The position numbers were made by a program, and so were the translations under genes. The notes below the pieces were generated by a model. It was not told where the DNA came from and did not search any database. It worked only from the letters and a program-made list of their open reading frames with translations. 64,000 nt of DNA, taken from Escherichia coli. Its GTDB lineage: Bacteria; Pseudomonadota; Gammaproteobacteria; Enterobacterales; Enterobacteriaceae. Of the stretch, positions 32,790 through 54,306 are shown one piece after another (position 1 is the first letter of the stretch; the number at the start of each line of letters is the position of its first letter). Location of the stretch: assembly GCF_011045215.1 (NCBI RefSeq), contig NZ_CP049201.1, one strand, 5' to 3'.

Positions 32790-33060
32790 GGATTTTTGAT
32801 ACGTTCCCGCGTGCTCGTATCACCAGCACGCAGAACACCAGGTTAATCAGGACGACCAGCCAGTTACCGGGTGGAAAGCGACCACACAGATAACAAAGCG
32901 GCGCAAAGGCATAAAGCAGCATCAGCAGCCAGGCCAGCCACGACATCAGCGGTTTATGTCTCGACTCACCACGACGATAAAAAAAGAGCGTCAGCACGAT
33001 AACCGTGCTTAACACCACATTCAGTAATCCGGGAAGGTTACTTAACATTACCGCCTCCAC
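32770..33060 (-). CDS. Holin/antiholin-like membrane protein
   Basis: 96 aa with 2-3 predicted TM helices, immediately upstream of endolysin. Confidence 0.5.
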   Translation of the reverse strand: MEAVMLSNLPGLLNVVLSTVIVLTLFFYRRGESRHKPLMSWLAWLLMLLYAFAPLCYLCGRFPPGNWLVVLINLVFCVLVIRARGNVSKILVLRRR

Positions 33061-33427
33061 CCCGCAGACGGGAGAACAGCCCGGATACCAGCGATGCGAT
33101 ATCCTGCTGGTGGATGAATGAGAGAATCTTCACTGACACCACCGATACCAGTACCGCACAAAGCGCGTCGAGAGATGTGCTGTGGAGATTCAGTTTTTCA
33201 ACCAGGTAAGACGCCATCACATCCGCCCCCAGCACGCCAACAATGAACGACACCAGAAAATGCGCTGCCACACGCCAGACAGAAATCTTCTGTGGTATCG
33301 TGGCCACAAACAGCGCCCCTGCGAATGCACCAAACACAATCCCGAAATCCGTTCCGGTAAACAGCCCGAATACCGTCGCCCCGCCGAGCGCCGCAGCCGT
33401 GCCGGAACCGGATAAGGGTTCAGACAT
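33038..33427 (-). CDS. Putative holin
   Basis: About 130 aa from MSEPLSGSG...; Gly/Ala-rich TM helices; ORF track start 33640 probably over-extended. Confidence 0.5.
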   Translation of the reverse strand: MSEPLSGSGTAAALGGATVFGLFTGTDFGIVFGAFAGALFVATIPQKISVWRVAAHFLVSFIVGVLGADVMASYLVEKLNLHSTSLDALCAVLVSVVSVKILSFIHQQDIASLVSGLFSRLRGGGGNVK

Positions 33428-33896
33428 ACTTTTTCTCCTGTAAATAAAAAAGGGCCGCTGTCGGCCCGTAAAAAAACACCCCGTCAAAGGCACCCGCAGA
33501 TGCCTTTTGTGTGGTGTTATCTGGTGTTTTCTGATGTGGTGTGTGCAGGACACAGATGTGAAAAAGGTCCGCCGGTACGAACCCTGTGTATGGATAAAAA
33601 AATGCCCGTCATGAGACGGGCTAACGCATTCATCATGCAAGAGTTAAGCAGGATTACCTGTATCGAATTATCGGTATCAGAATGAGTCGTCAACCTGCAA
33701 CGCAATTCTGACGAATCGTAGACCCCGGTTCAGGCGACGACTCATTCTGATAACGCATACCATTAACAATGTAAAAAACACAGCACTGAAACTGTAACCG
33801 GCCAGGCATTACAGAATGAAGAAAATAAAGTGTCCGCAACCAGATTCTTCACGAAAATTCGTCAGTGCTGATAAAGCTATGACTCATCAGTTTTAC

Positions 33897-33972
33897 TGGA
33901 GAACGGTGGCGGGAATCGAACCCACATCATCAGCCTGGAAAGCTGAGGTAATAGCCATTATACGATACCCGC
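33897..33972 (-). tRNA. tRNA-Gly(UCC)-like sequence, acceptor stem imperfect (possible pseudo-tRNA)
   Basis: Minus strand GCGGGTATCGTATAATGGCTATTACCTCAGCTTTCCAGGCTGATGATGTGGGTTCGATTCCCGCCACCGTTCTCCA: D-, anticodon- and T-arms like E. coli glyT, but 3' acceptor strand CACCGTTC does not pair with 5' GCGGGTA. Confidence 0.5.
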
Positions 33973-34190
33973 ATACTGTGCTGGCTTCCGGAATCACACG
34001 AATTACCGGGAAAGCCAGCACTGGTCTTTCCGGTGGCAAGCAACACCCCTGTGAACATAAAGACAACCACCTTCCGGACCAGTCAGAATACTAACGACAG
34101 TTTTTCAGACATCAAAAATATATTTGGTGTTCAGTTTTAAATATGTGTATACATCTGTATCAGAAATATACAACTTATATCATCACTGAA

Positions 34191-35237
34191 TTAAAAATCT
34201 TTCGTTATTTCTCTGACCGTCTGATTAAAACGTTCCTCTTCCAGTTCCACGCCAATCGCCCTGCGTCCCAGCAACAGTGCCGCTTTTATCGTGGAACCTG
34301 ACCCCATAAAAAAATCTGCGACCAAATCGCCTGGACGGCTGCTGGCAGTAATTATCTGACGCAACATATCCGCCGGTTTTTCACAGGGATGTTTGCCCGG
34401 ATAATACTGCACGGGCTTGTGCGTCCAGACATCCGTATAAGGAACGACAGCCGATACGGAAAAATAACGCCGCAGTGATTTGTATTCCTCCAGCAGGCTG
34501 ACATATTGCCGGTTCAGTTCGCTGTATGTGCTGACCAGCTGGTGATGTGGCTGCTCCAGTTCACCGCGCTGGTGTTTTTCTGCCGCCACACGTGCAAACA
34601 GCGCCTGCAGTTTACTGTAATCGGCCTCATTCGGTAACTGCCACTGACTGGTACCAAACCAGTGCGAAACCATGTTTTTCTTTCCGGTGGCTTCAGCTAT
34701 CTGTTTTGACGTTATCCCCAGTGATTCACGCGCATCACGGAAGTAAGAAATCAGCGGGGCCATCACGTGCTGTTTAAGCTCGCGCCCCTTTGCCGCATAG
34801 CCGTCATTTTTTGGCTGGTATGGCCCCTGATAATGTTCAGCAAACAGAATGCGCTCTGTTGCCGGGAAATACGCCCGCAGGCTTTCCTTGTTGCACCCGT
34901 TCCAGCGTCCGGACGGCTTCGCCCAGATAATGTGGTTCAGCACATTAAAGCGCTCACGCATCATGATTTCGGTGTCAGATGCCAGGCGATGACCACAGAA
35001 CAGGTAAAGACTTCCGGCAGGCTTCAGTACCCGCCAGAACTGCGCCAGACATCGGTCCAGCCATTGCAGGTAATCATCGTCGCCCTTCCACTGGTTATCC
35101 CAGCCCTCGGGCTTCACTTTAAAGTATGGCGGGTCTGTGACTATCAGATCGACAGAGTTTTCCGGTAATGTCCGGATAAATTCCAGGCAATCCGCGTTGA
35201 TTAACTCACAACTGGATATTTTTACAGTATTAGCCAT
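34191..35237 (-). CDS. DNA methyltransferase (DPPY motif; N6-adenine or N4-cytosine), orphan
   Basis: 348 aa; IVTDPPYF near N-terminus and FMGSGST near C-terminus; no adjacent restriction endonuclease gene. Confidence 0.85.
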   Translation of the reverse strand: MANTVKISSCELINADCLEFIRTLPENSVDLIVTDPPYFKVKPEGWDNQWKGDDDYLQWLDRCLAQFWRVLKPAGSLYLFCGHRLASDTEIMMRERFNVLNHIIWAKPSGRWNGCNKESLRAYFPATERILFAEHYQGPYQPKNDGYAAKGRELKQHVMAPLISYFRDARESLGITSKQIAEATGKKNMVSHWFGTSQWQLPNEADYSKLQALFARVAAEKHQRGELEQPHHQLVSTYSELNRQYVSLLEEYKSLRRYFSVSAVVPYTDVWTHKPVQYYPGKHPCEKPADMLRQIITASSRPGDLVADFFMGSGSTIKAALLLGRRAIGVELEEERFNQTVREITKDF

Positions 35238-35902: not shown

Positions 35903-36913
35903 TTGTACGAAATACATTACGACGTTGAGTCTGAACAGCAAGCTTTTGAATTACTTGAACGTTACCTAAACGGACAAGCTTTACCCGAAAAAATTAGTTT
36001 CAATGGTTGGCCAAGTCTAACCATCAGGTTGACTGGTGAAAAATTCAACAAATCACTCACACCTTCAGTTATGAAAGGATTTGTTGAAATGCAATCGCAA
36101 CTCAATAAGTCTTATGCGCTAGCAAAGTTCGGAACTCCTGATGTCCGCAGGCTAACAAAAGAAGAACTTGATGCTTTAGAAATTGAAGTTACAGTAGAGC
36201 AAGGTTCATCTCTTGTAGAGATTAACATTGATGGCTTCCTAAGCAAGCTTACGCACGAACTGGTAGGGAAAATGAACGCCACAGAGATTGTATTTACGGT
36301 TCTCGGTGCTGCCGTTATATGGGGCGGTGTAACCGTCTTCAAACGCTATCTGGATAACCGTAAAGATACTCGGTTGGCTGAAATTGCTAAAGAAGGCGAC
36401 AAAGAACACCTACGCGCAATGCAAGTGATGACACAGGAGGAAACAAAACGCCTCCAAATCATCTCAGAAATGGTGGCTAAAAAACCTCTACTCGACAATA
36501 TGGATCGAATGTCTTATGACGCTAAAACCACCATGGTTAAATCTTTCGTGCGTTCAGATTCAGCAGAAATTGACGGTGTCACAATAGATTCAGAAACGGC
36601 AAAAGAGCTAGTAACAAATGCTCGTCGACGCTCAGTTGAAATGAGAATAGACGGTATATACCGTATCGAAGAAGTGAATAATACCGACCCCGAAAGCTTC
36701 AAAGTTAAGGTTCGAAAGGTCGATTCTGATCAACGTTTGACCTGCGTTGTTCAGGATATATTCCTTGATGAATCAGGGAACAAAGAAGCCTTACAGCGAG
36801 CTGAATGGGAAAGAAAGCCTGTGCATTTAAGCATCAATGCCAAACACATTGATGGAGATATCAAGTCCGCCGTAATTTTACATGTGAAAGATGTTGAAGA
36901 TAAGCCCGAGTAA
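35903..36913 (+). CDS. Hypothetical protein, reverse-oriented AT-rich moron downstream of Q
   Basis: 336 aa, opposite strand to all flanking late genes, one central hydrophobic segment (IVFTVLGAAVIWGGVTVF), low GC; no family recognised. Confidence 0.5.
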   Translation: MYEIHYDVESEQQAFELLERYLNGQALPEKISFNGWPSLTIRLTGEKFNKSLTPSVMKGFVEMQSQLNKSYALAKFGTPDVRRLTKEELDALEIEVTVEQGSSLVEINIDGFLSKLTHELVGKMNATEIVFTVLGAAVIWGGVTVFKRYLDNRKDTRLAEIAKEGDKEHLRAMQVMTQEETKRLQIISEMVAKKPLLDNMDRMSYDAKTTMVKSFVRSDSAEIDGVTIDSETAKELVTNARRRSVEMRIDGIYRIEEVNNTDPESFKVKVRKVDSDQRLTCVVQDIFLDESGNKEALQRAEWERKPVHLSINAKHIDGDIKSAVILHVKDVEDKPE

Positions 36914-36928: not shown

Positions 36929-37318
36929 TCAAGATTCCACTTCGGCATCCATTTCTAAACTTACATCCAACATACTCAGGCAACCGTCGATAAACCCTTC
37001 AGCCATCTGTATCTCTATACGTATCAATTTCTCATCCTTCCAACGCGCCTTTGCAATCTTGCGCTTGGATATCCTGTATAAATAATGTGCCACAAGAAGC
37101 GAATGCTCATAAGGCCTTTTTTGCTTTAAACAAGCAAGACAACCTTCAATAATTAATGCGTCACTATCTGAACAAGCCAGGCGTTTCTTACTGGTATAGG
37201 GCAGAAGTCCCTTAAACCCGGCAGCTATAGGTGAATAGTCCACACCCGAGCTATCACTAGCCGCCCATGCCCCCCAACGCTCAAGAACCATCTGAATATC
37301 ACGCGCCATCGTTACCAC
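36929..37318 (-). CDS. Antitermination protein Q-like
   Basis: 129 aa immediately upstream of late/lysis region and downstream of RusA, Cys-containing; lambdoid Q position. Confidence 0.6.
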   Translation of the reverse strand: MVTMARDIQMVLERWGAWAASDSSGVDYSPIAAGFKGLLPYTSKKRLACSDSDALIIEGCLACLKQKRPYEHSLLVAHYLYRISKRKIAKARWKDEKLIRIEIQMAEGFIDGCLSMLDVSLEMDAEVES

Positions 37319-39492: not shown

Positions 39493-39648
39493 TTACTCCT
39501 CAGATTCGTAAGCTGTGAAGACAGCGACCTCCGTCTGGCCGGTTCGGATTCGTACCTCGCAGAGGTCTTTCCTCATTACCAGTGCCGTCACTATGACGGT
39601 TAAACAGATGACGATCAGGGCGATTAACATCGCCTTTTGCTGCTTCAT
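39493..39648 (-). CDS. hok: Hok/Gef family type I toxin
   Basis: MKQQKAMLIALIVICLTVIVTALVMRKDLCEVRIRTGQTEVAVFTAYESEE; upstream in-frame mok-like extension and hairpin-rich leader. Confidence 0.8.
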   Translation of the reverse strand: MKQQKAMLIALIVICLTVIVTALVMRKDLCEVRIRTGQTEVAVFTAYESEE

Positions 39649-40102
39649 AGCCTGCTTCTCCTTGCCTTTCGGCACGTAAGAGGCTAACCTACGTTTGTGT
39701 AGCATAGATTGGGCCTCAGATTAATGTTAAGCGTCTTGCCGGACGCGTAATGTTAACTGGGGCTTTTCTCTGTCTGCCTTACAGTGGCATGCCCGAGGCA
39801 GACAGCCTCAGGCACCCGCAACAATCTTACCGACACCGATAAGAAAACGCTATTTTTTATTGCCAGAACCTTCTGCCCAGGCTAATGTATCCGCGTCAGA
39901 ACGGCGCAATGCGCTCGCCTGAGATACGTTTACTTGTCATTGGTGGCAACAGATAACGGCAATTGTTGTTTCTGTTTGTTTCCTTCAAAAACCCCGGACC
40001 ATCAATCCGGGGTTTTTGTTTGTTATCCCCAGCGGCAAATCGAATACACCATCAGCGCCACCGCCATCGCAATTCCTGCCGTTGTGAATGCTTCAGGCCA
40101 GG

Positions 40103-52949: not shown

Positions 52950-53198
52950 ATGGCAAGACTTATTCTGCTCACTGAGTGGGCAAAAGAGGAATTCAGCGAT
53001 CCGGTCCCTACTCCGGGCACGTTAAGTAAATACGCTAAAGCCGGAATGATATTTCCTCTCCCCAAAAAAGTTGGAAGACACTGGCGAGTGGATCCACGAG
53101 CTCGCTTTGTCGGAATGGTAAACAAGCCGGAGGTGATCGCCACAGATCACCCTGCTTTGAAGAGGATACTGGAAGATGGCGCGCCCGCGAAAATATAA
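52950..53198 (+). CDS. Excisionase-like protein
   Basis: 82 aa directly upstream of and overlapping int. Confidence 0.6.
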   Translation: MARLILLTEWAKEEFSDPVPTPGTLSKYAKAGMIFPLPKKVGRHWRVDPRARFVGMVNKPEVIATDHPALKRILEDGAPAKI

Positions 53199-54306
53199 AA
53201 CCGAAGTTCCGGGACTATCTCCGTATTTTGACAAAAGAAATAACAAAGTTTACTGGCGTTACAGGCATCCCATAACAGGCAAAAATCACGGTCTCGGCAG
53301 TATTGACCAGAAACTGGCAGAAACTATTGCAGCAGAAGCGAACAGCCGTCTTGCCAGGCAGCAAATGGAACAAATGCTCAGTCTGCAGGAGAAAATTATT
53401 AATGATACCGGCGGTTCATCAACCGTTTCCATTTTTCTGAATAATTACAGAAAAATTCAACAGGAAAGATATGAAAACGGAGAGATCAAACTCAACACGC
53501 TGAAACAAAAAGCGGCCCCTCTCAGGGTATTTGATGAACGTTTTGGCACCAGACCGTTAGATGCCATAACTGTAAAAGATGTGGTATCGGTGCTGGAAGA
53601 GTACAAGGCCAGAGGACATAACAGAATGGGGCAAATTTTCAGGAAGGTACTGATCGATGTTTTCCGGGAAGCTCAGCAAACAGGCGATGTTCCGCCAGGC
53701 TTTAACCCTGCAGAATCGGCAAAAAAACCGCAGGTGCGGATATCAAGACAGCGACTGACTTTTGATGAGTGGATGATGATTTATAACGCAGCGGAAAAGG
53801 ATGGTTACTTTTTACAGCGCGGCATGCTGCTGGCACTGATGACAGGCCAGCGCCTTTCAGATATTTGCAAAATGCAATTTTCGGATATCCGGGATGGTTA
53901 TCTTCATGTCGAACAGCAAAAAACAGGAACCCGGATTGCCATCCCTCTTGCTCTGCGTTGCAATAAATTAAATCTCACCCTGGATGATGTGGTGTCATCC
54001 TGTCGCGATTGCGTTCTTAGTCCGTGGCTATTGCACCACCATCATGCGAAAGGGACAGCCAAGCGCGGCGGGATGGTTAAGCCAGCAACGTTAACAGTTG
54101 CATTTAAAAAAGCGCGGGATTCTGTGGATTACAACTGGCGTGCTAATGGCACCCCACCCTCTTTCCATGAGCAGAGATCTTTATCAGAGCGATTGTTCAG
54201 AGAGCAGGGAATTGATACCCAAATTTTGCTGGGTCATTCGAATCAAAAAATGACCGATATTTACAACGATGCACGCGGCAAGGAGTGGAAAAAACTGGTC
54301 ATTTGA
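53176..54306 (+). CDS. Tyrosine integrase, lambda type
   Basis: 376 aa; MARPRKYKTEVPGLSPY... N-terminal arm-binding domain; catalytic ...LLGHSNQKMTDIY...; last prophage gene before ompW. Confidence 0.9.
   Translation: MARPRKYKTEVPGLSPYFDKRNNKVYWRYRHPITGKNHGLGSIDQKLAETIAAEANSRLARQQMEQMLSLQEKIINDTGGSSTVSIFLNNYRKIQQERYENGEIKLNTLKQKAAPLRVFDERFGTRPLDAITVKDVVSVLEEYKARGHNRMGQIFRKVLIDVFREAQQTGDVPPGFNPAESAKKPQVRISRQRLTFDEWMMIYNAAEKDGYFLQRGMLLALMTGQRLSDICKMQFSDIRDGYLHVEQQKTGTRIAIPLALRCNKLNLTLDDVVSSCRDCVLSPWLLHHHHAKGTAKRGGMVKPATLTVAFKKARDSVDYNWRANGTPPSFHEQRSLSERLFREQGIDTQILLGHSNQKMTDIYNDARGKEWKKLVI

Follow-up and report, generated by a model that had tools for sequence, protein, structure and literature searches.

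The tRNA-Gly(UCC)-like element located between the methylase and lysis genes of a lambdoid prophage is very probably a non-functional pseudogene, the relic of a tRNA-Gly(UCC) gene carried by the phage, and does nothing as a tRNA. It occupies 76 nt on the minus strand of the window, the whole 64-kb stretch of DNA analysed here. In related prophages an intact, glyT-like tRNA-Gly gene is found at the identical spot, and intermediate alleles connect the two, bearing out the decayed phage tRNA that was among the readings offered in the preliminary description; the alignments suggested there, to glyT and to the tRNA-Gly genes of other phages, revealed both orthology and a graded allelic series. The match to tRNA-Gly is far beyond chance, because the element is orthologous to annotated tRNA-Gly genes of related prophages.

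The late region of the prophage displays a lambdoid organisation in which Q, the methylase, the element, two consecutive holins, a GH108 endolysin, Nu1 and the large terminase follow each other, all on the minus strand (Table 1). The integrase adjoins host genes, while the tail genes run off the left end of the window, and E. coli O157/O55 matches the host flank (opp/cls/kch) at 99.0% identity. The position of the integrase and the host flank therefore place the element ~20 kb inside an Escherichia/Shigella prophage, away from the att site. Between Q and the methylase, the opposite strand carries a 336-aa ORF that matches phrog_6191. At the same spot relatives contain an ompC-like porin (C5) or a CPBP endopeptidase (BCE049), and this variety of cargo identifies the Q-methylase gap as a moron slot. 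The prophage also carries a hok/sok-type toxin-antitoxin module, with a strong match to the sok antitoxin RNA. Matches to C4 antisense RNA and isrK (P1/P7-type immunity RNAs) were observed in related IMG/VR prophage contigs (L008, 10288-11132; L014, 2814-3002) and none in the window.

Table 1. Features of the prophage around the tRNA-Gly-like element (coordinates of the window)
Feature	Coordinates	Strand	Remarks
Integrase	53176-54306		adjoins host genes
sok antitoxin RNA match	39643-39817	-	RF01794, 109 bits, E 7e-24
Antiterminator Q	37318..36929	-	
336-aa ORF	35903-36913	+	phrog_6191 (function unknown), E 8e-143
N6_N4 DNA methyltransferase	34191..35237	-	upstream neighbour of the element
Weakened promoter-like site	34088..34115	-	TTGATG-16-TAGTAT (8/12); below the scanner's threshold
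thrU-like tRNA remnant	33977..34021	-	directly 5' of the element; alignment, fold
tRNA-Gly(UCC)-like element, very probably a decayed pseudogene	33897..33972	-	reads 33972 to 33897; 5' acceptor strand, D, anticodon and T arms intact, 3' acceptor damaged
Element, tRNA positions 1-48	33925-33972	-	
Element, last 29 alignment columns	33897-33924	-	
92-aa ORF	33816-34094	+	antisense to the relic
Three-way junction, probable terminator	33773..33870	-	closing stem CAGCACUG/CAGUGCUG and two inner hairpins, then UGUGUUUUUU
Long hairpin	33675-33752	-	17-bp perfect arms UAUCAGAAUGAGUCGUC...GACGACUCAUUCUGAUA
Terminator-like hairpin	33604-33621	-	U tail
Terminator-like hairpin	33452-33467	-	U tail
First holin (Phage_holin_8)	33038..33430	-	downstream neighbour; followed by the second holin and the GH108 endolysin

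The preliminary description had reported a UCC tRNA-Gly-like sequence between the methyltransferase and lysis genes, resembling E. coli glyT over the D arm, the anticodon arm and the T arm. Both statements hold, with the addition that the element lies on the minus strand, which had been left unstated. The element reads GCGGGUAUCGUAUAAUGGCUAUUACCUCAGCUUUCCAGGCUGAUGAUGUGGGUUCGAUUCCCGCCACCGUUCUCCA on that strand, and comparison with the K-12 gene (record NC_000913.3) reveals 61 identical residues over positions 1-65, the four differences being C6U, C32U, A38G and C50U; in the phage lineage U6 is paired with A67. The D arm, the UCC anticodon (loop UUUCCAG) and the T arm with its GUUCGAUUC loop are all present and near-identical to those of glyT, as are U33 and a purine at position 37. 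While the host gene belongs to the thrU-tyrU-glyT-thrT-tufB operon, the element resides in a prophage. The two sequences differ strongly 3' of the T arm, where the element contains CACCGUUCUCCA and glyT contains UGCCCGCUCCA, such that UGCCCGC-UCCA of glyT corresponds to CACCGUU-CUCCA in the element. The 3' acceptor strand is CACC-GUU rather than UGCCCGC, and the end is UCUCCA rather than UCCA. The CACC-GUU strand comprises a 1-nt deletion and a C>U substitution, superimposed on two changes (C66 and a UC insertion before CCA) that belong to an allele group termed type B.

In the standard register, the acceptor stem of the element retains three Watson-Crick pairs (U6-A67, G5-C68 and G4-C69) and a G1.U72 wobble out of seven, with A7xC, G3xG and C2xU unpaired, while five pairs may be formed if G3 is bulged. 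The claim that the 3' acceptor strand cannot pair with the 5' strand is thus correct in that the canonical 7-bp stem is absent and a slight overstatement in view of the five pairs of the bulged register. No substitute 3' acceptor strand (YACCCGC) was identified within 900 nt downstream of the element. An alternative register or a split gene was rejected, as YACCCGC is matched in full just once in the window, by chance, at 514(+). ARAGORN detected zero tRNAs in the whole 64-kb window. Rfam model RF00005 scores the element at 36.4 bits (gathering score 29; E=5.7e-4 for the whole window), through an alignment in which the acceptor stem has to accommodate a deletion and several mismatches. Neither program found a canonical cloverleaf in another register, the outcome that the preliminary description had regarded as refuting its observation. 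A permissive Rfam scan of 33400-34300 for other RNA families returned sub-threshold noise only.

Folding of the element into a cloverleaf is predicted to be 10.9 kcal/mol less favourable than its predicted fold, compared with a gap of 0.9 for the intact gene. In the predicted fold of both alleles that carry the deletion, the 5' GCGGG pairs with CCCGC of the T stem. E. coli tRNA genes, as a rule, encode the 3' CCA directly after the discriminator; in the element the CCA is displaced from this position, either as ...GUU C UCCA or, in the bulged register, as U-CUCCA. The identity set of GlyRS comprises U73, G1:C72, C2:G71, G3:C70, C35 and C36. The element keeps C35 and C36, while G1:C72 is now a G.U pair and the partner of G3 is deleted. 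The element would yield no chargeable tRNA and would be transcribed at most passively, within the late transcript or that of the tRNA unit.

The tRNA-Gly alleles form a graded series, starting with K-12 glyT (3' end ...CCCGCUGCCCGCUCCA; Rfam score of 64.9 bits and cloverleaf of -27.5 kcal/mol) and the intact phage gene, termed type A (3' end ...CCCGCUACCCGCUCCA; 65.6 bits and -25.5 kcal/mol), which differs from glyT by a single compensatory pair change (U6:A67 in place of C6:G67) and is called by ARAGORN. Type B (...CCCGCCACCCGCUCUCCA; 54.3 or 51.6 bits, with variants at 46.8 and 45.6, and -23.8 or -21.9 kcal/mol) is also called by ARAGORN and is distinguished by U32, G38, an A7xC66 mismatch and the UC inserted before CCA, an insertion common to all type-B alleles. 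Type-B genes, such as those of C5, R1 and BCE049, are annotated as tRNA-Gly and share U32, G38, C66, the UC insertion and the flanks with the element. The 1-nt deletion of the window allele is also present in BCE049, NS-NP030 and KS-NP019 (...CACC-GCUCUCCA; 41.4 bits and -16.7 kcal/mol), where ARAGORN makes no call. The window allele (...CACC-GUUCUCCA; 36.4 bits and -12.3 kcal/mol), likewise not called, adds C72>U to this deletion allele and displays the lowest Rfam score of the alleles seen. The NCBI pipeline labels the deletion allele of BCE049 as an ordinary tRNA-Gly; therefore, not all scanners reject such alleles.

The same gene order, with an annotated tRNA-Gly at the spot, was observed in E. 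coli C5, BCE049, R1, CEA224S, ESC818 and A36 and in phage SerU-LTIIb (KU052038), and PGAP annotates a tRNA-Gly at the equivalent position in many genomes. The 1.1-kb region of the element has no exact match, the best being that of E. coli C5 (97.6%). Eight loci were included in the methylase-to-holin intergenic alignment and 16 in the type-B comparison. The intact prophage tRNA-Gly genes of SerU-LTIIb, CEA224S, ESC818 and A36 have the same position and neighbours as the element and are identical to it over positions 1-31; CEA224S also contains the Thr-like remnant found upstream in the window. In contrast with the element, the intact copies present a perfect 7-bp acceptor stem, an encoded CCA and a score of 65.6 bits, and intact Thr, Arg or Ile tRNAs often lie upstream of them, together with a promoter-like site (TTGAAA-16-TATTAT or TAATAT) that matches at 9-10 of 12 positions and is homologous to the weakened site of the window. 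The arrays comprise Ile-Arg-Thr-Gly in ESC818 and Thr-Gly in A36, while the locus of SerU-LTIIb reads methylase, tRNA-Arg, tRNA-Gly and holin. The tRNA-Arg(UCU) of SerU-LTIIb (L001, 3863-3938 (-)) has a thrU-type body a few bases from the phage tRNA-Thr(UGU), UGU>UCU included, and looks like an anticodon switch within a duplicated tRNA.

The prophage tRNA arrays look host-derived, as type A is so close to glyT and the phage tRNA-Thr is near-identical to K-12 thrU. Gly codons GGA and GGG together represent 42.7% in prophage ORFs and 36.7% in a small host sample, a modest and not decisive difference as a rationale for the ancestral tRNA gene. Stx phage 933W carries the tRNA genes ileZ-argN-argO upstream of its toxin and lysis genes. 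Like the element, these genes lie in a Q-dependent late region upstream of the lysis cassette, although they encode different tRNA species and are regarded as functional, whereas the element is decayed. A search of the literature on the tRNA locus of LT-II phages and on ileZ/argN/argO of Stx phages returned nothing usable.

The thrU-like remnant directly 5' of the element terminates in A-CA and lacks the D and anticodon arms but keeps its leader, acceptor stem and a degenerate T arm. Its acceptor stem, GCUGGCU/AGCCAGC, displays two compensatory differences from thrU, and the remnant is predicted to fold as an acceptor/T-arm minihelix hairpin (-25 kcal/mol, z -5.6), in which all four stem polymorphisms among relatives (4/4) are wobble-compatible. 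This decayed Thr neighbour and the weakened promoter-like site upstream likewise point to decay of the array. Downstream of the element, the three-way junction is probably the terminator of the tRNA transcription unit; its closing stem is conserved whether the tRNA-Gly gene upstream is intact or decayed, and a U run is located at the end of the junction. Between this junction and the next terminator lies a long hairpin, of which four pairs covary between two clades ~26% apart (RNAalifold) and which matches no Rfam family; this hairpin may represent a structured RNA, or a small RNA, within the late leader. Between the relic and the first holin gene there are also two strong hairpins with U tails that resemble intrinsic terminators, and late transcription presumably passes both of them under Q.

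Type B is rare and was found in 13 of 5426 complete E. coli genomes, in 10 IMG/VR contigs and in 3 metagenome contigs, while the exact allele of the window is absent from the 5426 complete genomes, the IMG/VR and metagenome matches and the species reference genomes. The type-B anticodon arm produced 0 hits in the reference genomes of 100,044 species, which makes type B a derived state of the phage lineage. Capture of type B from glyT of another species was rejected on the same count (0/100,044 species reference genomes), the arm being matched elsewhere in only 3 metagenome contigs. L011, the closest relative (97.7% identity over 2869 bp), carries undeleted type B. The three changes in the 76 nt of the window allele fit the background rate, given the divergence of 2.3% from L011. 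Among the 16 type-B loci, six of 77 sites segregate in the tRNA, against a density of ~10% in the 3' end of the methylase gene, in the remnant and in the intergenic DNA. One variant, G53A (L008), breaks the universal G53:C61 pair, and no covarying pairs were found in the type-B tRNA-Gly across the 16 loci. Judged from these sequences, the pattern of variation argues for relaxed constraint and not for maintenance.

Variation is unevenly distributed along the type-B tRNA. Positions 1-48 display 0/48 variable sites in the 16 loci, where ~5 are expected, while the last 29 columns contain all six. The invariance of the 5' 48 nt may reflect recombinational homogenisation, residual constraint or chance; residual constraint, rather than pure neutrality, would count against the relic interpretation. 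CEA224S shares the upstream sequence of the window, remnant included, up to tRNA position 31, whereas from position 32 onwards its sequence is that of type A and the flank downstream differs from that of the window. Within type B there is a second joint ~55 nt downstream of the tRNA, and from there on the sequences of two clades are ~26% different. The tRNA-Gly gene thus acts as a recombination joint, as revealed by the mosaic breakpoints at positions 31/32 and ~55 nt downstream, and this property may explain the 5' invariance. A 92-aa plus-strand ORF, antisense to the relic, constitutes an annotation trap, existing only because the 1-nt deletion fuses two frames. A protein-coding explanation was rejected, as in C5 and R1 this ORF is split, and the ORFs on the minus strand over the element also lack conservation.

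The ancestor of the element would have been a glyT-like tRNA gene of E. coli lambdoid prophages, located between the late-region methylase and the lysis cassette, usually in a small array with a thrU-like tRNA-Thr and sometimes Arg and Ile tRNAs, behind its own promoter-like site. As the array decayed, the Thr-like neighbour would have lost its D and anticodon arms and the promoter-like hexamers would have weakened. In the Gly gene, the type-B changes (U32, G38, A7xC66 and UC inserted before CCA) would have come first, followed by deletion of the single C that pairs with G3 in the 3' strand of the acceptor stem and by the change of C72 to U. The outcome would be a gene with no 7-bp acceptor stem and no CCA beside the discriminator, with a predicted misfold and with two acceptor-stem identity pairs of E. 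coli GlyRS, G1:C72 and G3:C70, lost.

A working, if aberrant, tRNA-Gly(UCC) would need a G3-bulged stem with G1.U, a trimmed 3' trailer and an enzymatically added CCA. E. coli is able to add CCA to precursors lacking it, and the three arms and the UCC anticodon are intact; moreover, the Rfam score above the gathering threshold and the conceivable five-pair bulged acceptor helix both count against the relic interpretation, and a sister deletion allele is annotated tRNA-Gly by PGAP. A tRNA of this kind is nevertheless very unlikely, as ARAGORN rejects the sequence, the predicted misfold remains 10.9 kcal/mol more favourable than the bulged-stem cloverleaf, the G3:C70 pair is gone and G1:C72 is weakened, no CCA follows the discriminator, and the closest relatives lack both mutations, with no compensating changes. 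An att duplication of glyT, left by tRNA-targeted integration as the preliminary description had considered, draws on the fact that, in general, tRNA genes serve many prophages as integration sites and become partly duplicated. The properties of the element are the opposite of those of an att duplication, which keeps the 3' part: the whole gene is present, with a perfect 5' part and a damaged 3' end. It is internal to the prophage, with ~20 kb separating it from the integrase end, is syntenic with intact tRNA arrays in other phages, and carries the phage-specific U6:A67 and not the C6:G67 of the host. Position and anatomy lead to the rejection of this origin, the probability of which is close to nil.

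The element could also act as a non-decoding, tRNA-like component of the late transcript, together with the adjacent hairpin, either as a signal for stabilisation or for processing by RNase P/E, or by serving as a decoy for defence nucleases that target tRNAs. The invariant 5' 48 nt, compared with flanks that vary by ~10%, the very stable remnant hairpin with its wobble-compatible polymorphisms and the known action of phage tRNAs against tRNA nucleases are compatible with such a role, the last including a lambdoid thrU-type tRNA-Thr(UGU) that counters P2 Old (PMC12445682; PMC10264068). These two papers bear on intact arrays and not on the relic. Against a non-decoding role, covarying pairs are lacking, the 3' third is hypervariable with structure-breaking changes (G53A and the deletion), the window allele is predicted to lose the tRNA shape, type B is rare (13/5426 genomes), and the 5' invariance is also explicable by recombination among many identical prophage tRNA-Gly copies (joint 31/32). 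This explanation is regarded as very unlikely, and the regulatory tRNA-like element proposed at the outset gained no positive support, its diversity being similar to that of the flanks and disruptive mutations accumulating. There is little likelihood, too, that the type-B sequence, the broken allele included, and the acceptor/T-arm minihelix are kept as a non-decoding RNA that would direct processing or stability of the late transcript or act as a decoy for anti-phage nucleases that attack tRNAs; if true, such a role would explain the constant 5' 48 nt despite the drifting 3' end.

The sequence of the window is a new allele and an ordinary, well-explained tRNA pseudogene, not a new type of element, and the result is mostly a clean negative in which a puzzling-looking feature is resolved as an ordinary pseudogene. 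Sister alleles that share the 1-nt deletion are tagged plain tRNA-Gly by automated pipelines, which calls for caution in annotation. The locus also provides an example of a tRNA gene at which phage modules have been joined by recombination into a mosaic (breakpoint 31/32), and it documents how a host-derived (glyT/thrU-like) tRNA array has decayed step by step within the late region of lambdoid prophages.
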